The position numbers and the translations under genes were made by a program. The notes below the pieces were generated by a model, which ran no database searches, was not told the origin of the DNA, and was given only the letters and a program-made list of their open reading frames with translations. From Candidatus Falkowbacteria bacterium (lineage in GTDB: Bacteria > Patescibacteriota > Patescibacteriia > Patescibacteriales > UBA12465), in the NCBI GenBank assembly GCA_037137655.1, contig JBAXJX010000002.1, forward strand, positions 37,730-101,729: a stretch of DNA of 64,000 bases. The letters are read 5' to 3'. Position 1 is the first letter of the stretch. Each line of letters starts with the position of its first letter. Of the stretch, positions 2,466 to 52,162 are shown piece by piece.

Positions 2466-2897
2466 AGTTCATTAATAAATATTACTAGCTAGTTCAATTC
2501 ACGGAGTTATAAACCTTTAAAATTAAGTTGATGAAAAGACGTTCTGATCACAACAAAGGATCTACTATTATTTCCTAAAAAAATTAAAACAAAACTACCG
2601 GACATTTGTCCAATTTCTCAATTAACTTATTGTTTTATTTAAATTTTTTTACAATGAAAAAGCACCTTATAATTCGACTGTGTAGCTTAAGCAGCACAAC
2701 CAACAAAAAAAGCGAAATGATTATGGCAAAAACGTAAATTGGTGAAAAATGAAGCTTCGAAGTGAGCTAAATAAAGGATCTCCATTTTGGAATCTAAGCT
2801 CAAAAAACAAAAAGTAATAAAAAAACAATCTAAATGGTAAAATTTTACCAAAAAATACTCTCCACCCCTAATTTTATAAAAAATTAGGGGTTTTTTA
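2466..2897 (+). ncRNA. Candidate non-coding transcription unit (~430 nt), related to the island leader at 31839-32184
   Basis: Bounded by the promoter at 2431-2459 and a strong terminator (CCCCTAATT/AATTAGGGG plus T-run, 2865-2897). No ORF of 60 codons or more on either strand. Contains several local hairpins and sequence blocks shared with 31843-32169. Confidence 0.35.
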
Positions 2898-2935
2898 TTT
2901 ACCTAAAATTAGCTTATTTTAGTCATTACTACCCC

Positions 2936-2964
2936 TTGACGGCTTTATTCAGATGTGTTATTAT
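2936..2964 (+). promoter_or_regulatory. Promoter for the 2998 ORF
   Basis: TTGACG (2936-2941), 17-nt spacer ending in TGT (extended -10), TATTAT (2959-2964). Confidence 0.6.
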
Positions 2965-2997
2965 CACTACCTATAGTTACTTAAAAATTAAATACAC

Positions 2998-3513
2998 ATG
3001 GAAAAGAAAAAAAGACGAATGGACCTTATGGGGCGTTTGGCTAAATTTTTACTAGAAAAAGATTTAGAGCCTCACAGTAAAAAATTTGAAATTAGCGTGT
3101 TAACAACCTTAAAATTAGTAATCGAAGACACACCGGAATTCGGTCGAATTCTGGTTTCTCTTACCTTTTATGATCGAAAGGCGAAAAACATGAACACTAA
3201 CACTGATTGCGCCAATCTATTGTCAATCGTTAAAGACGGTATGTTTTCTTCTGGTAATATCCATATTCATGGACACCGTCAATTAAAGGATAAAGTCTTT
3301 GACATTATCAATAAGACCGTTAGATATAATGGTCGAGATTATGGACACGAAGAAGATGTTATTGCTTTATGGAAAATGGTTGGTGAAAAAATTGCCAAGA
3401 CAATCTTAGATGAGACTACAAACAAAAAAATGGGTCACAAAAAAAATGACGACACCATTGAGCTTGTAGAGATTAAACAAAAACAACTAGCTACAGCACC
3501 AAGCCATAGCTAA
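2998..3513 (+). CDS. Hypothetical protein (171 aa)
   Basis: ATG start, own promoter, bidirectional terminator downstream. No recognisable domain. Confidence 0.6.
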   Translation: MEKKKRRMDLMGRLAKFLLEKDLEPHSKKFEISVLTTLKLVIEDTPEFGRILVSLTFYDRKAKNMNTNTDCANLLSIVKDGMFSSGNIHIHGHRQLKDKVFDIINKTVRYNGRDYGHEEDVIALWKMVGEKIAKTILDETTNKKMGHKKNDDTIELVEIKQKQLATAPSHS

Positions 3514-3521
3514 AAACAAAC

Positions 3522-3551
3522 AAAAAGGGATTCAAACGAATCCCTTTTTTT
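3522..3551. terminator. Bidirectional terminator shared by the 2998 ORF and recA
   Basis: GGGATTC-aaac-GAATCCC flanked by an A-run and a T-run, lying between convergent genes. Confidence 0.7.
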
Positions 3552-3568
3552 ATTTATCTATTTTTTTA

Positions 3569-4654
3569 TTATGCCACTTTTACATCAGGCATATTAATTT
3601 TATCCATAATCATCTTTCTAACACGAGCCATCAATTTAGCGTCATCTTTCAAGAACTGTTTAGCAGTTTCCCGTCCAACTCCAAGTTTTAAATCACCCAT
3701 AGTGTAGGAAGCGCCAGACTTTTTAACAATGCCGTGTTCAACAGCAAGATCTAATAAATCACCGGCAATGGAAATACCCTCATTATACATGATATCAAAT
3801 TCAGCTGTTTTAAACGGCGCCGCTACCTTGTTTTTGACAATCTTAGCTTTCACCCGATTACCAATAATCTTTTCGCCTTGTTTAAGTTGAGCGGCTCGAC
3901 GAACTTCCACGCGCACTGAACAGTAAAACTTCAAAGCATTACCGCCAGTGGTTGTTTCAGGACTACCAAAGAACACCCCAATTTTATTTCTAATCTGATT
4001 AATAAAAATAACAATCGTATTGGTCTTGGAAACGATACCGGTTAATTTACGTAGAGCTTGACTCATCAAACGAGCTTGCAAGCCCATGTGCTGATCGCCC
4101 ATATCGCCCTCAATTTCCTTCTGTGGCACTAAAGCGGCCACGGAATCGATAACTACCACATCAACCGCATTAGAACGCACCAGCGTCTCTACAATCTCTA
4201 AGGCTTGTTCACCTGTGTCAGGCTGTGAAATTAATAAATCCTTAATATTCACACCGATCTTTTGAGCATAATCTGGATCCAAAGCATGCTCCGCATCCAC
4301 GAAGGCGGCAATACCACCCAATTTTTGTACTTCAGCCACAATATGTTGAGCTAAAGTTGTTTTACCAGATGATTCTGGTCCAAAAATCTCAATAATGCGA
4401 CCCCGAGGTACACCGCCAATACCAAAAGCAAGGTCTAATGATAAACATCCAGTGGAAACCGCATCGACATCAGTCTTGCGAGCATCACCAAATTTCATAA
4501 TTGAACCTTCACCAAATTTACTTCTAATTTGACTCATAGCTTCGGAAGCCGCCTCTTGTTTCTTGGCCGACTCCTTGTCCTTAGCGATAGTGTCCTTGTC
4601 TTTAACAACAAGCTCTTTAACACTCTCTGGAATCACTTTTTTCTCCTTCTCCAT
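3569..4654 (-). CDS. recA: Recombinase RecA
   Basis: Walker [11 protein letters not shown], then [10 protein letters not shown] and [13 protein letters not shown]. The track ORF begins at a TTG (4684); the ATG at 4654 (MEKEKKV) is the likelier start. Confidence 0.95.
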
Positions 4655-27039: not shown

Positions 27040-27071
27040 GATTCTTGAAAGATTAATGCTTAATAAAAGTG

Positions 27072-27144
27072 AGCGGGTAGGGGGAATCGAACCCCCATCC
27101 TCAGCTTGGAAGGCTGATATAAAAAACCATTATACGATACCCGC
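27072..27144 (-). tRNA. tRNA-Gly (anticodon TCC)
   Basis: Reverse complement reads GCGGGTA..TCAGC-CTTCCAA-GCTGA..GGGGGTTCGATTCCCCC-TACCCGC. Confidence 0.88.
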
Positions 27145-27166
27145 AACGTATAAAAACAAACAAATG

Positions 27167-27250
27167 TACCGCGAGAGGGAATCGAACCCTCAAGATATCG
27201 CTATCACCGGATTTTAAGTCCGGCGCGTCTACCAATTCCGCCATCGCGGC
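27167..27250 (-). tRNA. tRNA-Leu (anticodon TAA), long variable arm
   Basis: Reverse complement reads GCCGCGA..CCGGA-CTTAAAA-TCCGG, a variable arm, then GAGGGTTCGATTCCCTC-TCGCGGT. Confidence 0.88.
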
Positions 27251-27268
27251 AAATAAAAAATACTAACG

Positions 27269-27650
27269 TGGAGATGATGGGAGTCGAACCCATGTCTAAC
27301 AAGTTTTTCAAAATAGTTCTACAAGAATAGTCTGATTTAAGGTCTTATCTAGATTATCAAAACCTGACAAAAGTAATCTAAACCAGCTAACAAATGGTTC
27401 GGCTTAAAAGTGCTAGCACCCGATAAGCCTATCTTCAGCGAATTACACCAGAGGTCGATTATGAAGAGTCCTCGTTCTGATGGTTGTCGGTTTTATTAAG
27501 CGACAACAGGAGCAAAAGCTGGAACTTTCCATGAGAAAGCGGCTTTAGCAGTGTTTTTTACACTTATGTTTTAAGCGGGATTAACGTGGGCGCTAGACCA
27601 CGGCTTGCGTATAATGAAAAAATATCTTGCTATCGATGCCTGACATCCCC
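27269..27650 (-). ncRNA. ssrA: tmRNA (SsrA)
   Basis: 5' GGGGATG pairs with 3' CATCTCC, keeping the G3:U70 Ala identity pair, and the T-arm is GGGTTCGACTCCC. The internal tag frame GCT AAA GCC ... GTT GTC GCT TAA TAA has its stop codons in a hairpin loop. Adjacent to smpB. Confidence 0.9.
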
Positions 27651-28169: not shown

Positions 28170-28499
28170 TTGGCAAAAAACTCATTGACATCTACAAGAT
28201 CAATTACACCTCTTTTTGCGTATACATTAGAAGAAGAAACTGGAAAGCTAACTTTAACAGCCAAAAACGGTTATTACATGAGTAGCGAAAAAAACAAAAT
28301 GTTAATATTTAAAGGTAAAGACCTGGAAAAAACTACTCAAAATTTCTTCAACTATTTTATTTCTGGTGGTGAAGCTAAAATCAACAAAGATGTTAGTGGA
28401 GAACAATTTTACACTCATTTTATCTACGAAAAAGATCACTGGCTAGTAAAAAGAGCGGAAATTAGTTGGCAATCATATGGTGAATATGATGACGACTAA
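28170..28499 (+). CDS. Hypothetical protein (start uncertain: TTG at 28170 or ATG at 28278)
   Basis: The ORF ends just before a bidirectional terminator. No recognisable domain and no clear promoter. Confidence 0.4.
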   Translation: MAKNSLTSTRSITPLFAYTLEEETGKLTLTAKNGYYMSSEKNKMLIFKGKDLEKTTQNFFNYFISGGEAKINKDVSGEQFYTHFIYEKDHWLVKRAEISWQSYGEYDDD

Positions 28500-29979: not shown

Positions 29980-30402
29980 TTAAGCATTAACAGAGGTTTC
30001 TTGTAACTGCTGGTATTTTTTAAATTCCAAGGTTTCAGCGAGATATCTACAGGCCTCAATACGATTGTAAACCAAAGAACATCCAGCTAAACGTAAGCTT
30101 TCACTATAATTAGAACATTCGGATATTCCAATTATTTTTTCAGGTTCAGAATGAGCAAAACGGGCAATTGATACAAATTTAAGGATTTCCGCAACATTAC
30201 TTTCAGTGGATATTGCACAAAAAATTAAATCGATACCTTCATCGTATTGTAAAATACGATGAACTCTTTCTGTGTCAGTACTGGTAGCGCTAATAATGCT
30301 TATTCTTTCATCAGCTAATGCTCCCTCGAACACCGCTTCGATAATTTTCTTGACAATGAGGTTCTCGTCCTCAATAATCAAAATTTTTAATTTTTTTCCC
30401 AT
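29980..30402 (-). CDS. Stand-alone receiver (REC)-fold protein lacking the phospho-acceptor Asp (pseudo-receiver), paralog A
   Basis: KILIIEDE (beta1) and KIIGIS (beta4) resemble CheY. Hand alignment puts Ala/Cys (DLIFCAIS) at the D57 position and Asn (LVYNR) at K109. About 45 percent identical to the 34421-34834 product. Confidence 0.7.
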   Translation of the reverse strand: MGKKLKILIIEDENLIVKKIIEAVFEGALADERISIISATSTDTERVHRILQYDEGIDLIFCAISTESNVAEILKFVSIARFAHSEPEKIIGISECSNYSESLRLAGCSLVYNRIEACRYLAETLEFKKYQQLQETSVNA

Positions 30403-30445
30403 AATTTATTCAGCTTTAAAGGTACATATTATTTTCTCTTTTTAA

Positions 30446-30474
30446 ATTATACCATATTTTGGAGATTGTGTCAT
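30446..30474 (-). promoter_or_regulatory. Promoter of receiver-like gene A
   Basis: On the minus strand, ATGACA, 17-nt spacer ending in TGG, TATAAT. The 5' UTR contains ATATGTACCTTTAAA, also present upstream of paralog B. Confidence 0.6.
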
Positions 30475-30505
30475 TAATAAAAATCTTTTATAAAAAATGT
30501 TTTCT

Positions 30506-30514
30506 TGCTATACT
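30506..30514 (+). promoter_or_regulatory. Extended -10 promoter giving a leaderless TrmB-family mRNA
   Basis: TGCTATACT ends 6 nt before the ATG at 30521. Confidence 0.5.
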
Positions 30515-30520
30515 ATCAAT

Positions 30521-31273
30521 ATGATAAAAAACTTTCTCCAAAATGTCGGTCTAAACGATAAAGAAATAAAAGTATATTTAGAATTATTACGAGTGGAAAA
30601 CGACTCTGTTTTAGATTTGTCCAAAAAGACCAAAATCTTACGTACTTCTATTTATCCAATTTTAGATTCCCTAAAAAGTAAGGGCTTAATTGTTGAAGTG
30701 AAAGTTGGGGCTAAAATTCGTTTTCAAGCTGAAGCGCCGGAAAAAATTGAAACTTACATTGAAACTCAAAAAATAAAGCTAGATGAACAAGCTCAATTAG
30801 CCAACGAATATATTCCTCAATTAAAAAGCATGTCCCGCCAAACCGGCGAAAAACCGATCGTTAAAGTGTATGAAGGGCGAGAGGGAATATTCAAAGCCAA
30901 TGAAGAGTCTTTTGGTTATGGAAATATATCGGATGATGACACTGCCTACTACATTTACCCGTTTGATCTATTAGAAAATCTTTTCTCAAATGAAGAATTG
31001 AAAAAAGGCACTAAGCAAAGAACTGCTAGAAAAATAAAATCAGAAACTTTATACACATATTCTAAAGGGGAAAGGACTCCAAGTGAAAATTCTAAAAGAA
31101 TAAAGATTAATGAAAAAAAATATCCCCTCACTTGTGACATCAGCATTCATAAAGATAAAGTTAGAATTAACACCTTAGGAAAATCATTATCATCACTAGT
31201 AATAAAAAGTCAGGATATCGCCGACACTCTAAAATCTCTCTTCAAAATAGCTTTCGACAATTATAAAGATTAA
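30521..31273 (+). CDS. TrmB-family winged-helix transcriptional regulator (paralog 1)
   Basis: N-terminal HTH LGLNDKEIKVYLELLR..LSKKTKILRTSIYPILDSLKSKGLI. The ATG at 30521 (MIKNF) fits the promoter better than the track start at 30497. Confidence 0.8.
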   Translation: MIKNFLQNVGLNDKEIKVYLELLRVENDSVLDLSKKTKILRTSIYPILDSLKSKGLIVEVKVGAKIRFQAEAPEKIETYIETQKIKLDEQAQLANEYIPQLKSMSRQTGEKPIVKVYEGREGIFKANEESFGYGNISDDDTAYYIYPFDLLENLFSNEELKKGTKQRTARKIKSETLYTYSKGERTPSENSKRIKINEKKYPLTCDISIHKDKVRINTLGKSLSSLVIKSQDIADTLKSLFKIAFDNYKD

Positions 31274-31274
31274 A

Positions 31275-31600
31275 AAATAAGGGACTGTATTGCTACAGTC
31301 CCAGTTTTGATTTTTTGAGGCAACACATGAGGCCTCGTCTACAAAATGACATAAAAAACAATTTTTTTTGTTTTTTACCGTCTGATCACTTTTGTGATCT
31401 TTCATTTTTGTTAATCACCCATTACTTTAAAATTTAAGGGTTGAACAACTACTTAGATATTTATTGTCAATTAATATTAACTAAAAATCTCGATCATGAA
31501 CTAATATTTTTAAATTCACGGAGGGGTATCCTTGATACCCCGACCGTAAAATATATTAGTCGTTCATGGCTAAAACTTTATGGTTAAATACTAAGTTAAC
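31275..31600 (-). ncRNA. Candidate ORF-free minus-strand transcript convergent with the TrmB gene
   Basis: Runs from the consensus promoter at 31608-31636 to the shared terminator at 31281-31316. Contains a GC-rich interrupted 12-bp hairpin (31518-31547) and a GATCAC-tttt-GTGATC hairpin. Only short ORFs are present. Confidence 0.35.
31281..31316. terminator. Bidirectional terminator after the TrmB gene
   Basis: GGGACTGTA-ttgc-TACAGTCCC with T-runs on both strands. Confidence 0.75.
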
Positions 31601-31607
31601 AAAAAGT

Positions 31608-31636
31608 ATTGTATCACACAAAACAATAAGTGTCAA
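31608..31636 (-). promoter_or_regulatory. Near-consensus promoter with no downstream ORF
   Basis: On the minus strand, TTGACA, 17-nt spacer ending in TGA, TACAAT. Confidence 0.6.
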
Positions 31637-31747
31637 TAGTTAATAAAAAAATGTCAAAAATAAATATCATTTTTTTAACAATATAAAAAATTAATCCTGT
31701 GGATAAGTCAGAATATAGTCAATAATTTAAAACATTTAATTGAACAA

Positions 31748-31775
31748 AAAGCCTAAATAATTTGGGCTTTTTTTA
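31748..31775 (+). terminator. Hairpin plus T-run in the non-coding gap (usable on either strand)
   Basis: AAAGCCT-loop-GGGCTTT followed by TTTTTT. The complementary strand also ends in TTTTGTT. Confidence 0.5.
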
Positions 31776-31803
31776 ATATTTTAATAAAAACTGACAAAAG
31801 GTA

Positions 31804-31832
31804 TTGACATTTATGTTTTTGCATGCTATTGT
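31804..31832 (+). promoter_or_regulatory. Promoter of the island's rightward transcription unit
   Basis: TTGACA (31804-31809), 17-nt spacer ending in TGC, TATTGT (31827-31832). Confidence 0.6.
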
Positions 31833-31838
31833 TTGTTT

Positions 31839-32184
31839 ACAATTCATTAAAAACATGGTCCATTAATTTTCTGATTTATGTTTATAAGCTACTGAGCTTT
31901 AAATAGCCAGAAGCGCAAAACACATTTTTTATAATCACGCTTGTCTTTATGCCTTATCGGCATAAACCAGAAAATTTTTGGACACCGGTTTATAGATCCC
32001 ACGTAAAGGCGTGGAAAACTGATAAAAGTCAGTCCGGGATATACGATATGAATTACAGAAAACTTACCGCCGCCGACCAACTGTTACTAGCTAACGGTTT
32101 CAACCTTAATGGAAGTCCAAAAGGTGAAAAGTCACAAAGCTTACGAGCTGTGATTAATACTCCAATGGGAAACCGGAGGTAAAG
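31839..32184 (+). ncRNA. Candidate structured leader or ncRNA (unique 5' segment of the island transcript)
   Basis: GC-enriched compared with its surroundings. Perfect 8-bp hairpin TTTATGCC/GGCATAAA (31946-31966), whose 3' arm can alternatively pair with GGTTTAT (31987-31993). Further hairpins CCACG/CGTGG and CTGA/TCAG. Overlapping ORFs on both strands (77 and 63 aa) make coding doubtful. Confidence 0.35.
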
Positions 32185-32565
32185 AATGTAGGCCACCGTT
32201 CCGGTTAAAACGGCCTAGCGATTTTTGGCGAAACCAATTTCTACGCTAGTTCTCTGTCTTTCTTTTGATTAATTCTCATTATGGGGCCAGCAGCCACATA
32301 ATGAGATTATCAAAATCGAGGCTTTTCCCATGTGCACGTGGGTAATTAGATTTGTATGTTTTACTATTACTCGAGGATAAAACAAGCCTTAAGTGATCAC
32401 AAAGATACAAAATCTGGGGAAACAATTTTTACTGGCCCGATCAACCGTAAAAAAGAAATTGGCAAAAAAACGGGCAATCGCATTAATTTTTCCAAAGTGA
32501 AAATTTAGTGTCGATTGCCCTCATTATTCAATTCATAATTTTTAAATTGTGAATTGATAGTGAGA
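32185..32565 (+). repeat. Copy A of a ~380-nt non-coding element (candidate structured RNA)
   Basis: Aligns end to end with 32806-33190. The differences are compensatory in at least four helices. No ORF of 60 codons or more on either strand. Confidence 0.6.
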
Positions 32566-32596
32566 AATAGTTCTTTAAACTTAAAAAAATATAACC

Positions 32597-32791
32597 ATGG
32601 AAACGATCATTTTTATTATGGCGATTATAATAATTATTGAAACTACAATTATTATAAACTGGAAACTAAAGAAAAAAATGTCAAAAACACAAAAATCACG
32701 AAACGAGGAGTTTTTTCAAAGTATAAAAGAAACTAACCAATATCTTAAAAGGCTCGAAGAAGAACTACCAGATTTAAATAATCGCAAATAA
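32597..32791 (+). CDS. Small membrane protein candidate (64 aa): one hydrophobic helix plus a charged tail
   Basis: ATG start. N-terminus IIFIMAIIIIIETTIII followed by a K/E-rich segment. It lies exactly between the two element copies and has the shared ATAGTT leader motif 30 nt upstream. Confidence 0.45.
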   Translation: METIIFIMAIIIIIETTIIINWKLKKKMSKTQKSRNEEFFQSIKETNQYLKRLEEELPDLNNRK

Positions 32792-32805
32792 ATAAAATAT
32801 TTAAA

Positions 32806-33190
32806 ATTATAGGTCGCCGTTCCGGGTAAAACGGTCTAGCTATTTGGCGCAACCAATTTCTTAGCTAGTTCTCTGTCTTTATTTTGATGGTGTCACATTA
32901 TGGAGCCAAAGGATACATAGATGTTGATAATTAAAATTAAGGCTATTACTCATGTGCACGTGAGCAATTAGATGATTTTTTTACTCTTGCAAGAGGATGA
33001 TCCAGTTGGACGAACCTTAAGTAATTGTAAAATCTATCTTCTGGAGAAAAAATTTTATTGGTCTGATCAGCCGTAAAAAAGAAATTGGCAAAAAAACGGG
33101 CAAGCACATTATTTTTTCCAAAGTGAAAATTTAGTGTGGCTTGCCCTCATTATTCAATTCATAATTTTCAATTGTGAATTGATAGTGAAA
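32806..33190 (+). repeat. Copy B of the ~380-nt non-coding element
   Basis: See copy A. It starts about 15 nt after the stop of the 64-aa ORF and ends about 40 nt before the next ATG. Confidence 0.6.
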
Positions 33191-33230
33191 AAATGTTATT
33201 TAAAAATTTAAACTTCAAAATCATACTGAC

Positions 33231-33959
33231 ATGGAAAGACATCTGATCAACACCGAACTAGTTTTAGATTTAATCAACGCTTTTTCTAAAGCTTTAATTA
33301 AAAATAAACGCAGCCGAAAAAACGCGGAGATACTAATTTACTACCACACAGAGAAAATTAATTACACTATCGCGAACCTACTAAACCGTCCTGGTAAAGC
33401 TTATAATTTTTATGAAAATAAATTATTTGCCAGACGAGCAGGAAGTGATTATTTTAATCTCGAGTATGTTAACAACATTCCTTTAGAAGAAATCATGACC
33501 AGCGAACAAGTGGTTGAGATTATAAATCTATTCACCAATGTTTTTAAAACTAACTTTTTCAACAAAGCGGTGGCCGAAGCATTATTATCAGATCTAGAGG
33601 CAATTAATGAGGCGGTTGATGGTCTATTTGAGATGGATCCGGCCTTCAATTTATTTGAATACATGATGTTTACTAGAAACCTACCACTTAATGATTTCAA
33701 AGAATACCCACTTAGTGGCGGCAAGATTATTATTTGCACCAACCATAAACTATGCGAATCTTATGGCGTTAAAATTGGCAGTAAAGTTCAAATTAATTCA
33801 ATGACTAATACTAGAGATGTAATTATTGGCGTTGCCCCAAGTCCGCATTCTAATAACAATGAAATAGTTATCTGGCTTAAAAATGATTCCAACGAAATTA
33901 ACAGAGTTGGTTATTTAACATTAAGCGGATTACAACCCCTCGTTATTATCAATGAATAA
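33231..33959 (+). CDS. Hypothetical protein (242 aa): two similar helical modules plus a beta-rich C-terminus
   Basis: ATG start. Internal repeat (ELVLDLINAFSKALIKN.. and EQVVEIINLFTNVFKTN..). No recognisable domain. Confidence 0.65.
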   Translation: MERHLINTELVLDLINAFSKALIKNKRSRKNAEILIYYHTEKINYTIANLLNRPGKAYNFYENKLFARRAGSDYFNLEYVNNIPLEEIMTSEQVVEIINLFTNVFKTNFFNKAVAEALLSDLEAINEAVDGLFEMDPAFNLFEYMMFTRNLPLNDFKEYPLSGGKIIICTNHKLCESYGVKIGSKVQINSMTNTRDVIIGVAPSPHSNNNEIVIWLKNDSNEINRVGYLTLSGLQPLVIINE

Positions 33960-33999
33960 TATGTAAAAATAGTTTCTTAACCTTTAAAATTATACCGTT

Positions 34000-34365
34000 A
34001 TGATAACCGGAGAAATTACCAACAGAGAATTAATTCATGCAGAATTAATTTTAAACGAGAAAAACAAATGTTCTATCACTGTCGTGCCGAGCATTTATTT
34101 TGAAGATAAAAAAAATGGCGCTGTCGAAGAAGACAGGCACCCCCGATGCGAAGTTTTTGGCGGAGTTGGTCCAAGTCATATTTTCAGAATATTTTGCCTG
34201 CCGAGTATTAGGGCTAAAATAGTTTTAGAAGATTTGGCCATTGCAATAAACGAGTTGCCAAACAATGAAGTTTTATATTTCATTATTGACAAGAATATGA
34301 TGGACGAAGAGTTGAAAAAACTTTTAAACGACGATGAGCGAAAATTCATAATCGTGGTAAGGTAA
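34000..34365 (+). CDS. Hypothetical protein (121 aa)
   Basis: ATG start, ATAGTT leader motif 31 nt upstream, terminator immediately downstream. Confidence 0.6.
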   Translation: MITGEITNRELIHAELILNEKNKCSITVVPSIYFEDKKNGAVEEDRHPRCEVFGGVGPSHIFRIFCLPSIRAKIVLEDLAIAINELPNNEVLYFIIDKNMMDEELKKLLNDDERKFIIVVR

Positions 34366-34402
34366 AAAATAAAGCCCCATTCTTTTGAAAGGGGCTTTTT
34401 AA
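34365..34402. terminator. Bidirectional terminator closing the island operon and receiver-like gene B
   Basis: AAAGCCCC-loop-GGGGCTTT flanked by A and T runs, between convergent genes. Confidence 0.7.
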
Positions 34403-34420
34403 TTTTTGTTTAAAGATTGC

Positions 34421-34834
34421 TTAGCAACAAACTGCTTCTAGCTTTTCTTCTTTTTGAAAGTCTAATGTTTCTTTTAAGTATCGGCAAGCGTTCATTTGAT
34501 TGTAAACATTTGTACAACCAGCCAACATTAAACTTTTAATATTATCAGCGTAATTTGCAATTCCAATTATTTTTTCTGGTTCTGGGTGAGCAAAACGAGC
34601 AATTGATACAAATCTAACAGTGTCTTTAATATTGTTCTTACTAGAAACAGCAATAAAGATTAAATTAACATTTTGTTCGTATTGCAAAGCGCGGTGAACT
34701 TTTTGACTGTCACTACTAGGAACACTAACAATTTTTATTTTTTTATCCGCAATTGCACTTTCAAACATTGTGGCAATAATTTGACTGACAAGAAGACTAT
34801 CATCTTCAATGATTAAAACTTTTAAACTGTTCAT
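34421..34834 (-). CDS. Stand-alone pseudo-receiver protein, paralog B
   Basis: VLIIEDD, NLIFIAVSS (Ala at the D57 position), KIIGIA, NVYNQ (Asn at K109). Paralog of 29980-30402. Confidence 0.7.
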   Translation of the reverse strand: MNSLKVLIIEDDSLLVSQIIATMFESAIADKKIKIVSVPSSDSQKVHRALQYEQNVNLIFIAVSSKNNIKDTVRFVSIARFAHPEPEKIIGIANYADNIKSLMLAGCTNVYNQMNACRYLKETLDFQKEEKLEAVCC

Positions 34835-34880
34835 GGCTATATAATTTTAAGGTACATATATTCAAATTAACTATGAATAG

Positions 34881-34909
34881 ATTATATCATAAAAATAGTA
34901 TTTTGTCAA
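34881..34909 (-). promoter_or_regulatory. Consensus promoter of receiver-like gene B
   Basis: On the minus strand, TTGACA, 17-nt spacer ending in TGA, TATAAT. The 5' UTR contains ATATGTACCTTAAA. Confidence 0.65.
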
Positions 34910-42709: not shown

Positions 42710-43324
42710 TTATTTTGTTACGGTTAAACCAATTAACATGCGGTCTTGCCAAGTAGATTTCTTAATATTATCATCAGTGATTTTGCGTAAATAAGTTATT
42801 TTTACATCCATTTCTTCTGGATAATAATAAGTATTCCACTCCCTTGCTTTATTTTCAGCTAATTCAACAATATACTCATAAATATCCGTAAAATTTTCGA
42901 ACATATTGGTTTTAGCCACATCCATAAAACTAAAAGTTATTTTTTCCACTGGAACATGCACAACCGGTTTCTTCTCTGGCTTTTTAATGCCAATCGAATT
43001 ATAACGGATTAATTTAGAAATGTTATACCTTTCATTAGCTAGCGCCATTTCATCTCTAATTTTCTCCGGCTTAATGAATTCAATTTCCATAATTGAAACA
43101 CTGGATAACAATTCATTAACAAGTTCTTTTATTTGCGTAACTCTTTCTTGTCGTTCTTTCTGCAAATCAACCGCCACTTGCTCTGATTTTAGAATAACTT
43201 GTGGTTTTTTATTTTTATACACCGTCTTATATTCACTCAAGGCGATAGATTCAATCATTATTTTATAAAAATAAGCTGTTGCCGGATTAATACCTGCTGT
43301 CGGTTTTGAAACTGCTGTTTCCAT
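42710..43324 (-). CDS. Hypothetical protein (204 aa)
   Basis: ATG start. No recognisable domain. Confidence 0.6.
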   Translation of the reverse strand: METAVSKPTAGINPATAYFYKIMIESIALSEYKTVYKNKKPQVILKSEQVAVDLQKERQERVTQIKELVNELLSSVSIMEIEFIKPEKIRDEMALANERYNISKLIRYNSIGIKKPEKKPVVHVPVEKITFSFMDVAKTNMFENFTDIYEYIVELAENKAREWNTYYYPEEMDVKITYLRKITDDNIKKSTWQDRMLIGLTVTK

Positions 43325-51397: not shown

Positions 51398-52162
51398 TTA
51401 TTTAGACTTAATAAACTGTTTAGCTCCCAACCAGGCCAATTCAAAAACGTTTCTTTGAGCATCGGCAATTTCTTGGCTCTCAATAATTACGGCAAATTTT
51501 TCCTTCCAAGAGATGGTAAGAATTTTATTATTATAAATATTAGTTTCTGTAGAAAAATAAAATTTATTGCGAGGAACAACTAAAGATTCTCTTAATTCTT
51601 CTTTGTCTTTAGCGATTACTTTTAAGCTATCAAGATCATCTGGCGCAATTAACCTAATTTTAATACGGCGCTCAACTCTTTTTTTAAAATATTTTCTTAA
51701 ATATTCTTCTCCAACAGCCTCAAAAGCGTCAGCACCAACAGCATAACCCAATATTTCATTTTGGGCCGTTAAGGTATCCTCGTAAGCCTCTTTAACTCTT
51801 TCAAGCCCCTCATAAAACTTAACTTTCGGTTTCTCTTTAATATTATAAACGGATAGTAACTCGGGTAATAATAAATAGGCTTGTTTTAATTTTTCTTGGC
51901 TCTGTCTAATTCTATTCTCCAAAAAGGAAATTACCTTTTCTGGATTTTCGGCCACAAATTTTTGCACTTTAGTTTCGCCAATCGGATTAATCAAACCCTC
52001 ACTGACCAATGACTCTAAAATATCATAACCAGTGGTCCGATTTATTTTAGCGTTGCGCGAGATCTCTGTCGTGGTGGCTGGCCCTAACTCTAAGAGGGCC
52101 AAATAAACTCCAGCTTCTTTGTCGCTAAATCCTAGTTCAATTAATTGATTTTTATTTACCAT
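51398..52162 (-). CDS. TrmB-family winged-helix transcriptional regulator (paralog 2)
   Basis: LGFSDKEAGVYLALLELGPATTTEISRNAKINRTTGYDILESLVSEGLI. Confidence 0.8.
   Translation of the reverse strand: MVNKNQLIELGFSDKEAGVYLALLELGPATTTEISRNAKINRTTGYDILESLVSEGLINPIGETKVQKFVAENPEKVISFLENRIRQSQEKLKQAYLLLPELLSVYNIKEKPKVKFYEGLERVKEAYEDTLTAQNEILGYAVGADAFEAVGEEYLRKYFKKRVERRIKIRLIAPDDLDSLKVIAKDKEELRESLVVPRNKFYFSTETNIYNNKILTISWKEKFAVIIESQEIADAQRNVFELAWLGAKQFIKSK

Follow-up and report, generated by a model that had tools for sequence, protein, structure and literature searches.

Genes and features between hppA and tig

The region studied is a ~3.9 kb block of DNA that is headed by a gene for a TrmB-like regulator and is located between the genes hppA and tig in a 64 kb window, the whole stretch of DNA analysed, from a metagenome-assembled genome of Candidatus Falkowbacteria (NCBI locus tags WCK37_032xx; the same strain is also represented in ENA ERZ4201038, a 965-kb contig). 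The sequences examined were this window and contigs from other genomes (loci L0xx). The flanking genes were found to carry the Pfam domains Trigger_N/Trigger_C (tig) and H_PPase (hppA). Reading from tig to hppA, the interval holds a gene for a receiver-like protein (A) on the minus strand, the TrmB-like gene on the plus strand, a convergent minus-strand RNA unit, a plus-strand array made up of a small-protein gene, two copies of a repeat that each end in an RNA module designated H1-H2-tail and three orphan open reading frames (ORFs), and a gene for a second receiver-like protein (B) on the minus strand.

A first-pass annotation of the window had described the whole interval from 29980 to 34909 as an accessory island, about 40 percent of it free of ORFs yet furnished with promoters and terminators. 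All of the ORFs that it named were present, the non-coding share came to ~37–39%, and the promoter-like and terminator-like sites were found where it had placed them; in total, there were 40 promoter-like sites where 23.8 would be expected by chance, and 12 terminator-like sites where 3.1 would be. It had also seen no integrase, transposase or tRNA at the borders. No integrase or transposase was detected there using Pfam and NCBIfam, and there is no tRNA, the nearest tRNAs and a transfer-messenger RNA (tmRNA) being located at 27071–27650. Mobility genes, a tRNA target and flanking direct repeats were likewise not found at the block.

Insertion of the block between two backbone genes

The hppA-tig site was located in two relatives. 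In L005, in which tig is roughly 88% identical to that of the window (judged by eye), the order is the end of hppA, an orthologue of the gene for receiver-like B, a terminator, a promoter, an orthologue of the gene for receiver-like A (P0003) and tig, with 13 nucleotides (nt) from the terminator of the B orthologue to the -35 box of the A promoter. In the more distant relative L095 (tig 81% identical), NusA and hppA are followed by one receiver-like gene, whose promoter architecture is the same, and then by tig and smpB. No TrmB homologue was found in the DNA fetched around tig of L005 (6.4 kb) and L095 (14 kb), and in both the orthologous site is without the block, as is expected of a genomic island. 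As L005 and L095 have hppA, the receiver-like gene or genes and tig without the block, comparison of the three genomes indicates that this is the backbone order and that the receiver-like paralogues belong to it. It further indicates that the receiver-like gene was duplicated in a lineage that includes the window, and that the block (~30478–34365) was inserted between the duplicates.

On the left, the insertion starts just past the promoter of the gene for receiver-like A, at ~30475–30490. This sigma-70-type promoter (coordinates 30446..30474, minus strand; 11/12 match, extended TG) aligns with the promoter of the A orthologue in L005. The right border is the stop codon of the 121-amino acid (aa) ORF. 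Beyond it, the promoter and terminator of the gene for receiver-like B are nearly identical between the window and L005 in a DNA alignment, and the bidirectional terminator (AAAGCCCC...GGGGCUUU; 34371..34398) has a near-identical hairpin counterpart after the B orthologue of L005; it is the backbone terminator of the gene for receiver-like B, reused by the array. An insertion is thus present as the first-pass annotation had supposed, but its extent is narrower than the island drawn there. The check proposed at that time, whether tig stands directly beside hppA in related genomes, had a divided outcome, in that the TrmB block is missing from both relatives but one or two receiver-like genes separate tig from hppA.

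The TrmB-like gene and its locus family

The first gene of the insert (30521..31273, plus strand; alternative ATG at 30497) encodes a TrmB-like winged-helix regulator of 250 aa, which matched Pfam TrmB (PF01978) with an E-value of 3.2e-12 and 46.6 bits against a cut-off of 25.6, and scored far below the cut-offs of the NCBIfam equivalogs. It shares the N-terminal winged helix with the archaeal-type regulators TrmB and TrmBL2 (PDB 3qph, 5bqt) and, at ~250 aa, is close to TrmBL2 in size. However, the PDB profile matches to TrmB and TrmBL2 covered the N-terminal ~95 residues only, there was no Pfam, NCBIfam or PDB match past approximately residue 97, and the C-terminal sugar-binding domain of the sugar-sensing TrmB was not detected. 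The -10 hexamer (TATACT) ends only 6 nt upstream of the ATG, so in the window the mRNA plausibly lacks a leader; relatives have one of ~20 nt.

Homologues of the TrmB-like protein (n=97) share 29–76% identity, mostly 42–76%, and 293 relatives were found in GTDB species genomes of the Falkow-, Zambryski-, Taylor-, Nomura-, Vogel- and related 'bacteria'. In all contexts inspected, a long stretch in which no genes were called comes after the TrmB-like gene, and beyond it there are small ORFs that have no Pfam domain. This locus type was found in at least 64 species of Paceibacteria, an uncultivated group, and in at least three chromosomal contexts, namely with Wzy_C and EF-P (L009, L014 and L021), with a P-type ATPase and a HAD hydrolase (L012), and with hppA and tig (the window). 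The insert is one copy of a TrmB-headed locus type that is common in Paceibacteria. Of the single module that had been proposed in the first-pass annotation, what holds is that a TrmB-like gene, ORF-free units, repeated RNA and downstream small ORFs co-occur in other genomes. The co-occurrence check suggested with it found that the TrmB-like gene recurs together with the RNA element, but that the receiver-like family and the 64, 242 and 121-aa ORFs do not recur with them in the 83 other TrmB loci.

The H1-H2-tail RNA module

The two copies of an element reported previously were recovered as direct repeats of ~400 nt (~32185–32585 and ~32806–33210) that are 86% identical and are the only two copies in the 64 kb. 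Both fold better than shuffled sequences (z scores of -7.9 for copy A and -5.5 for copy B), and each ends in one H1-H2-tail module. The module consists of a sequence-variable hairpin, H1, followed by a conserved 19-bp hairpin, H2, a short A-rich linker and a single-stranded tail, GUUCUUUNAAA. All parts are on the plus strand. In module A, the folded H1 (GGGCAAUCG...CGAUUGCCC; 32472..32520), which shows one compensatory change relative to copy B, is followed by H2 (32521..32563) and the tail GUUCUUUAAA (32570..32579), 17 nt before the ATG of the 64-aa ORF. In module B, H1 (33098..33146, also from folding) is followed by H2 (33147..33188) and the tail GUUAUUUAAA (33195..33204), 26 nt before the ATG of the 242-aa ORF.

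When the two window copies were used in an nhmmer search, short matches were obtained in other TrmB loci, several per locus and always on the TrmB strand. In a seed alignment of ten H2 sequences (A7), 94.7% of the positions assigned to pairs were paired, compared with 35–52% when partners were slid, and compensatory changes were seen in seven pairs. A covariance model, R1, was searched against 0.92 Mb and gave 81 matches, 79 of them on the TrmB strand and up to six per locus; the window copies were matched at 32515–32584 (83.1 bits, E 2e-16) and 33141–33209 (78.7 bits, E 2e-15). Over the 81 matches, 92% of cells were paired and double changes were present in 18 of the 19 pairs, counts that are inflated by the fitting of this alignment (A8) to the model, although the independent seed alignment shows the same trend. 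When R1 was run over the whole window with filters off, the only matches with E better than 1 were the two H2 hairpins of the island and their opposite strands (E 0.005 and 0.4).

H2 has a single bulged U, several conserved G-U pairs and a variable loop. Its frequent G-U pairs would turn into C-A when read from the opposite strand, so H2 acts as a plus-strand RNA. A reading of the 3' arm of H2 as a promoter (TTGATA...TAAACT) was rejected, as its distance from the tail ranges from 12 to 16 nt among instances and the G-U covariation is a sign of RNA. In the tail, G-U-U-C-U-U-U-N-A-A-A, the conserved positions are each kept in 77–89% of the 81 matches and one position is variable. A GC-richer hairpin, H1, was found directly upstream of 52 H2 hairpins, with a mean z score of -3.7 compared with -0.8 for controls, and the end of the module is mostly 0–60 nt before the start of an ORF. 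At the coordinates of H2, whether in the window or in 11 sister loci, no Rfam 15 family matched, and Rfam at gathering and permissive thresholds gave no match for the repeat, H2 or the leader of the array. H2 is a new structured RNA motif, and the widespread, regulator-linked array system that contains it is apparently undescribed.

Genes in the window mostly lack a Shine-Dalgarno-like sequence, which precedes only ~3 of the 37 long ORFs. Within the 60 nt before ORF starts, the hexamer CTT[TA]AA is enriched ~2.5-fold, clustering at -15 to -25 (near -18), and the strict tail is found in three of 55 other 5' untranslated regions (5' UTRs). One 204-aa ORF elsewhere in the window (42710–43324, minus strand), which has no Pfam family, its own promoter and no H2 hairpin, carries GTTCTTTAA 16–24 nt before its ATG; its 5' UTR motif (GUUCUUUAA) resembles the module tail, and its start context, TATAACCATGGAAAC, is that of the 64-aa ORF.

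Hammerhead ribozymes in sister loci

Type III hammerhead ribozymes (Rfam RF00008) were identified inside arrays when 11 sister loci were searched, all on the TrmB strand, and two of these, in L076 (49.9 bits) and L055 (49.6 bits), exceeded the gathering score of 48.5. A pattern for the hammerhead core with a paired stem II, applied to a set of 83 TrmB loci, was found 77 times on the plus strand and once on the minus strand. The hammerhead takes the place of H2, between an H1-like hairpin and the same tail, such that H2 and the hammerhead are positionally interchangeable; the tail is found 4–9 nt after the hammerhead core in 65% of cases, compared with 6.5% of random windows. The window itself has no hammerhead, as Rfam gave no match at E <= 10 in 31200–33300 and none window-wide at the gathering score, and the core pattern was also absent.

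Among the 64 loci with at least 1.5 kb of DNA downstream of TrmB, 50 carry H2 or a hammerhead, with H2 in 31, a hammerhead in 38 and both in 19. When comparable amounts of DNA were considered, 137 of these elements were located downstream of TrmB and four upstream. H2 may descend from a hammerhead, in view of the likeness of its outer helix (CUCA...UGAG) and 3' arm, UUGAUAGUGAG, to hammerhead stem III and the CUGAUGAG core.

Clustered hammerheads on one strand that flank single genes or short blocks of inconstant identity have been described in prophage regions, where they were proposed to cut polycistronic RNA and did so in vitro, giving gene-length pieces (Perreault et al. 2011, PMC3088659). 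The sister loci hold ribozymes of this type III kind. However, the Paceibacteria arrays are chromosomal, adjoin housekeeping genes, are headed by a TrmB-like gene and in part carry the small-protein gene, and they add H1 and the conserved tail; the copy in the window also differs in having H2 only. The block gave no match against phage records, and three pattern scans of IMG/VR returned zero or chance matches with no hammerhead core or H2 nearby. Although self-cleaving ribozymes are frequent in bacteria, their role there has remained largely elusive (PMC6765202), and a search of the accessible literature found no paper linking hammerheads or TrmB to Patescibacteria or Parcubacteria.

The minus-strand RNA and the head of the array

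Downstream of the TrmB-like gene, a terminator called on both strands (31281..31302) is common to this gene and to a convergent RNA unit on the minus strand (31395..31636), which has its own promoter (31636..31608; 11/12 match) and whose transcript probably extends to that terminator. The unit is kept just downstream of TrmB in eight distinct loci, with copies in L012 (11003–11198), L014 (4138–4328) and L009 (10824–11045) and also in L018, L015, L022 and L021, and no Rfam match was found for it. It includes two mini-ORFs, ATG-AAC-GAC-TAA (31568..31557) and ATG-GGT-GAT-TAA (31422..31411), and a hairpin between them (31524–31542) in which 10 of the 17 pairs show compensatory changes. Both mini-ORFs are conserved and encode M-X-D, the first as ATG-NNN-GAY-TAA and the second as (A/G)TG-NNN-GAY-TAR. 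In relatives each is preceded by a strong GGAGG, which is odd given a genome mostly without Shine-Dalgarno sequences. Pairing of the module tail with this small RNA was considered and rejected, as an 8/10 match in the window had no counterpart in L012 or L009.

A symmetric terminator-like hairpin (31746..31772), in a region conserved in L012 and L009, lies between this unit and the divergent array. The array promoter is of the sigma-70 type (TTGACA-17-TATTGT with extended TG; 31804..31832, plus strand; 10/12 match), and both of its hexamers are kept in all four aligned loci. An alignment of the stretches that follow TrmB showed conservation of the minus- and plus-strand promoters, part of the 5' UTR and a short coding region. 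The 5' UTR (31858..31983, plus strand) is structured, with arms at 31858–31888 and 31953–31983 that are 81% complementary, and its hairpin is kept in L012 with a U-A to C-G change (seen by eye in the alignment); the fold of 31838–32190 has a z score of -4.1.

The first gene of the array (32048..32182, plus strand) encodes a small basic protein of 44 aa, MNYRKLTAADQLLLANGFNLNGSPKGEKSQSLRAVINTPMGNRR, which ends in TPMGNRR. As the conserved short coding region varies at third codon positions in the DNA alignment, the 350-nt 'structured leader' of the first-pass annotation holds a real gene. Hidden Markov model matches to this family of ~50-aa proteins were obtained in ~22 of 80 species loci, on the TrmB strand and 0.6–4.4 kb downstream, and the protein has no Pfam or PDB relative. 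In L014 (4733–5302), the small-protein domain is fused to a C-terminal extension of 140 aa. An unrelated 204-aa cargo protein in L032 (4652–5266) ends in SPMGGQSGYRKRFRRK, echoing TPMGNRR.

TGTCA/TGACA pentamers flank the two divergent promoters, near 31631, 31653, 31795 and 31807, and one TGAC box ~10 nt upstream of the -35 hexamer is kept in four loci; these pentamers are candidate operators for the TrmB-like protein. A second TrmB-like gene with a consensus promoter is present in the window (51398–52162, minus strand), and its product is 30% identical to that of the island copy. As no H2, hammerhead or array was found beside this paralogue, the array-linked TrmB represents a distinct subfamily.

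The repeats and the cargo ORFs

The 5' part of repeat copy A (X_A; 32189..32471, plus strand) is free of ORFs and folds with a z score of -6.6 on its own. The corresponding part of copy B (X_B; 32810..33097, plus strand) is ~76% identical to X_A, with 214 identical positions, and has a z score of only -1.5. Of 89 pairs predicted in X_A, 15 are broken in copy B, where 21.9 would be expected, a modest departure from chance (P 0.0135). No homologue of X_A or X_B was found in other loci, and blastx gave no coding similarity. A diversity-generating retroelement or retron as the source of the two copies was rejected, as there is no reverse transcriptase and the differences, judged by eye, are not adenine-specific.

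The modules are followed by ORFs on the plus strand. The 64-aa ORF (32597..32791), an orphan with one predicted membrane helix and weak, sub-threshold family matches only, starts 13 nt after module A and stands between the two direct repeats. The 242-aa ORF (33231..33959) matched only itself among 5.8 billion proteins and has no Pfam, NCBIfam, PADLOC or PHROGs family; its single-sequence structure model was unusable (predicted local distance difference test score, pLDDT, of 44). The protein appears to hold two similar N-terminal helical segments (residues ~5–50 and ~90–135) followed by a beta-rich C-terminal part. The 121-aa ORF (34000..34365), also without a family match, is preceded in its 40-nt gap by a tail-like sequence, GUUUCUUAA CCUUUAAAA (33972..33989, plus strand), which has no hairpin and resembles both the 5' UTR of the gene for receiver-like B and a variant tail in L055. 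None of the three ORFs has a homologue in the 83 other TrmB loci; they are variable cargo and not conserved components.

Cargo varies between loci, even in the same chromosomal context, and mostly has no Pfam family. Two cargo genes directly after an H2 module encode Ro60/TROVE proteins, in L072 (9241–10845; Pfam TROVE and vWA_Ro60) and in L086 (9397–11007), where the assignment is based on N-terminal similarity to the L072 protein. Near both there are long ORF-free stretches with several modules, in which Rfam identified no Y-RNA family. A cargo family of ~100 aa without a Pfam match, sharing the motif GW.T.R.I......YFEVAE.GHC.IC, recurs in L012 (11887–12192), L085 (10778–11080) and L089 (7896–8216), so the cargo comes in part from a shared pool.

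The receiver-like proteins

The backbone genes on either side of the insert encode receiver-like A (140 aa; 29980..30402, minus strand) and receiver-like B (137 aa; 34421..34834, minus strand; promoter 34909..34881, 12/12 match). The two proteins are 54% identical over 130 aa (E 5e-56). In L005, the B orthologue is directly after hppA with a promoter almost identical to that of B in the window, and P0003 (130 aa), directly upstream of tig, is 33% identical and was assigned as the A orthologue by its position. The family is extremely rare. Receiver-like A matched only itself among 5.8 billion proteins, and an exhaustive phmmer search with B against 1.8 billion cluster representatives recovered only A and P0003.

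The earlier label 'receiver-like' is supported by the predicted CheY-like fold but not by Pfam, as neither protein matched Response_reg (PF00072) at E <= 1. The AlphaFold model of A (pLDDT 85.9, predicted template modelling score 0.82) has five strand-helix units, (beta-alpha)5, and Foldseek matched it to the AdiA wing domain and many receiver (REC) domains with template modelling (TM) scores of 0.5–0.63; the REC matches had E-values of 3e-4 to 2e-3 (TM 0.55–0.63). Strand beta3 of A is formed by residues 59–64 (LIFCAI) and is followed by S65, with no phospho-acceptor Asp at its end. All four members of the family keep A63 and S65, the equivalence to the Asp site being judged by strand position and not by structural superposition. 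The predicted fold and the missing Asp are shared with CheY-like pseudo-receivers such as the AdiA wing domain, and 'pseudo-receiver' is a fair description at the level of the modelled fold. However, the proteins of the window stand alone at ~140 aa, have no kinase partner nearby, and belong to a family found by sequence search in only two species.

The 5' UTR motif that had been noted as common to both genes, GUACCUUUAAA (GUACCUU(U)AAA), was confirmed at 30415–30429 and 34845–34859. It resembles the tail of the array modules, and tail-like sequences are also present in the receiver-like orthologues of L005 and L095. This likeness is only suggestive of a functional link between the receiver-like genes and the array.

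Neighbouring genes

Left of the island by ~2.3 kb, tRNA-Gly, tRNA-Leu and the tmRNA (tag peptide VKNTAKAAFSWKVPAFAPVVA) are located beside smpB on the minus strand. In L005, the stretches 2734–3276 and 3343–3708 cover a RelB/ParE-YafQ toxin-antitoxin pair, which lies between tig and smpB and is missing from the window, and a 121-aa ORF, which is a longer homologue of a 109-aa ORF in the window (28170–28499).

Proposed function of the array

In the block, which is a copy of the TrmB-headed locus, the H1-H2-tail modules probably act as intercistronic signals for RNA processing, stability or translation. The sequences show the insertion, the locus family, how the RNA is structured, where and on which strand it lies, and that it takes the position of hammerheads; co-transcription, cleavage and the roles of the tail, the small protein and the TrmB-like protein are inferred. 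One transcript of ~2.5 kb, driven by the promoter at 31804, would span the small-protein gene and all three cargo ORFs and end at the terminator 34371–34398, and the modules would punctuate this polycistronic RNA. A break just 3' of H1, self-made in loci with a hammerhead, would leave H1 as a protective hairpin at the 3' end of the upstream message and give the downstream message a structured 5' end. A break at H2 presumably would need a nuclease that is specific for double strands or dedicated to the module; alternatively, H2 may act as a stabiliser or operator. The tail, 10–30 nt before the AUG, may be a signal shared among the 5' UTRs that serves translation or is recognised by a trans-acting factor, and the TrmB-like protein presumably controls the array promoter.

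In bacteriophage T7, the early and late mRNAs contain intercistronic RNase III hairpins of ~20 bp with an internal bulge, and cleavage leaves stabilising hairpins at the ends. H2 is similar in being ~20 bp long, bulged and located between the cistrons of what would be a long transcript. However, the H2 helix keeps its sequence in many genera and is accompanied by a specific tail.

Several observations weigh against this reading. No catalytic core can be recognised in H2, and a nuclease partner was not found. The 121-aa ORF is preceded by a tail-like sequence without a hairpin, and both H2 and hammerheads are missing from the four loci whose TrmB is closest to that of the window (L015, L016, L018 and L020). 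In each repeat, the first ~285 nt fall outside the model and show weak structural conservation, and the pair counts from A8 are inflated as stated above. The insertion itself was assessed in only three genomes at the site, for which deletion from both relatives is an unlikely alternative.

A bolder proposal, which is possible but tentative, is that the H1-H2-tail module is an undescribed class of functional RNA that replaces type III hammerheads in Paceibacteria arrays, either as a new ribozyme or as the recognition site of a dedicated factor such as the ~50-aa protein. H2 and the tail are rather unlikely to serve as operators bound by a trans-acting RNA-binding factor, for example the small basic protein, that would co-regulate translation or stability of all cassettes with no obligatory cleavage. 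The H2 helix does keep its sequence and G-U pairs, the single-stranded tail is conserved and always has the same place ahead of the AUG, strict tail-like motifs are found in few other 5' UTRs of the window, and the small protein is conserved as the first product of arrays, its gene in L086 itself being preceded by H2. However, only ~22 of 80 loci gave a match to the small protein, RNA binding by this protein is conjecture, it has no known fold or family, and replacement of H2 by hammerheads is left unaccounted for.

That H2, together with H1 and the tail, forms a new class of self-cleaving ribozyme substituting for the hammerhead is improbable. New ribozyme classes have historically been found near known ones (PMC6765202), and H2 is not in Rfam 15, occupies the hammerhead position between H1 and the tail, and is found together with hammerheads in 19 loci. 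However, apart from one bulge and a loop that varies, H2 amounts to an uninterrupted helix in which neither an internal loop nor a junction or pseudoknot is conserved, and the tail is common to hammerheads and so is not specific to H2.

There is also little chance that the receiver-like paralogues, the TrmB-like gene, the RNAs and the orphan ORFs form one functional module with the bracketing paralogues as components, as the first-pass annotation had proposed. The tail-like 5' UTR motif of the receiver-like genes and their orthologues would fit such a module, as would weak receiver domains in the array cargo of L061 and L076. Against it, the paralogues adjoin each other and tig without the block in L005, a single gene is found at the site in L095, and the receiver-like family is absent from the 83 other TrmB loci. 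The receiver-like genes are also on the opposite strand, with promoters and terminators of their own. The defence or toxin role suggested for the module found no support, as no island protein matched PADLOC or a named toxin family. The three cargo ORFs had no named PHROG function, and tests against PADLOC and toxin-antitoxin Pfam families returned only weak matches for the TrmB-like protein at the level of the helix-turn-helix, with nothing for the small protein, the cargo or the receiver-like proteins.

It is very improbable that the modules serve for recombination in a cassette system like that of integrons, as no integrase or recombinase was found in the window block using Pfam and NCBIfam (other loci were not systematically screened) or among the called genes of L001 and the TrmB contexts P0018, P0014 and P0006, the self-cleaving ribozymes that take the same position favour a function in RNA, and H2 lacks the paired RYYYAAC and GTTRRRY boxes of attC sites, its GUUCUUU being unpaired, outside the helix and a misfit to GTTRRRY, with no AAC box on the 5' side. 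Like integron cassette arrays, these arrays have promoterless, mostly orphan and variable ORFs on one strand and imperfect hairpin repeats whose structure is kept more than their sequence; cargo differs among the related loci L009, L014 and L021 in the same context, direct repeats flank the 64-aa ORF, and L021 ends in a module with no ORF after it. They differ in having no integrase, no R''/R' core pair, an adjoining transcription factor, and ribozymes that alternate with the hairpins.

If the modules do act as intercistronic signals, apparently ORF-free DNA in a tightly packed, reduced genome would be organised regulatory RNA. The RNA motif is new for family databases, and the corrected borders of the insertion allow the receiver-like genes to be studied as backbone genes of the clade. 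Under the bolder proposal, the TrmB-headed arrays would form a defined, regulated system for testing the role of bacterial hammerheads; they offer a natural swap of ribozyme and hairpin in the same slot, a candidate regulator and a candidate small protein.

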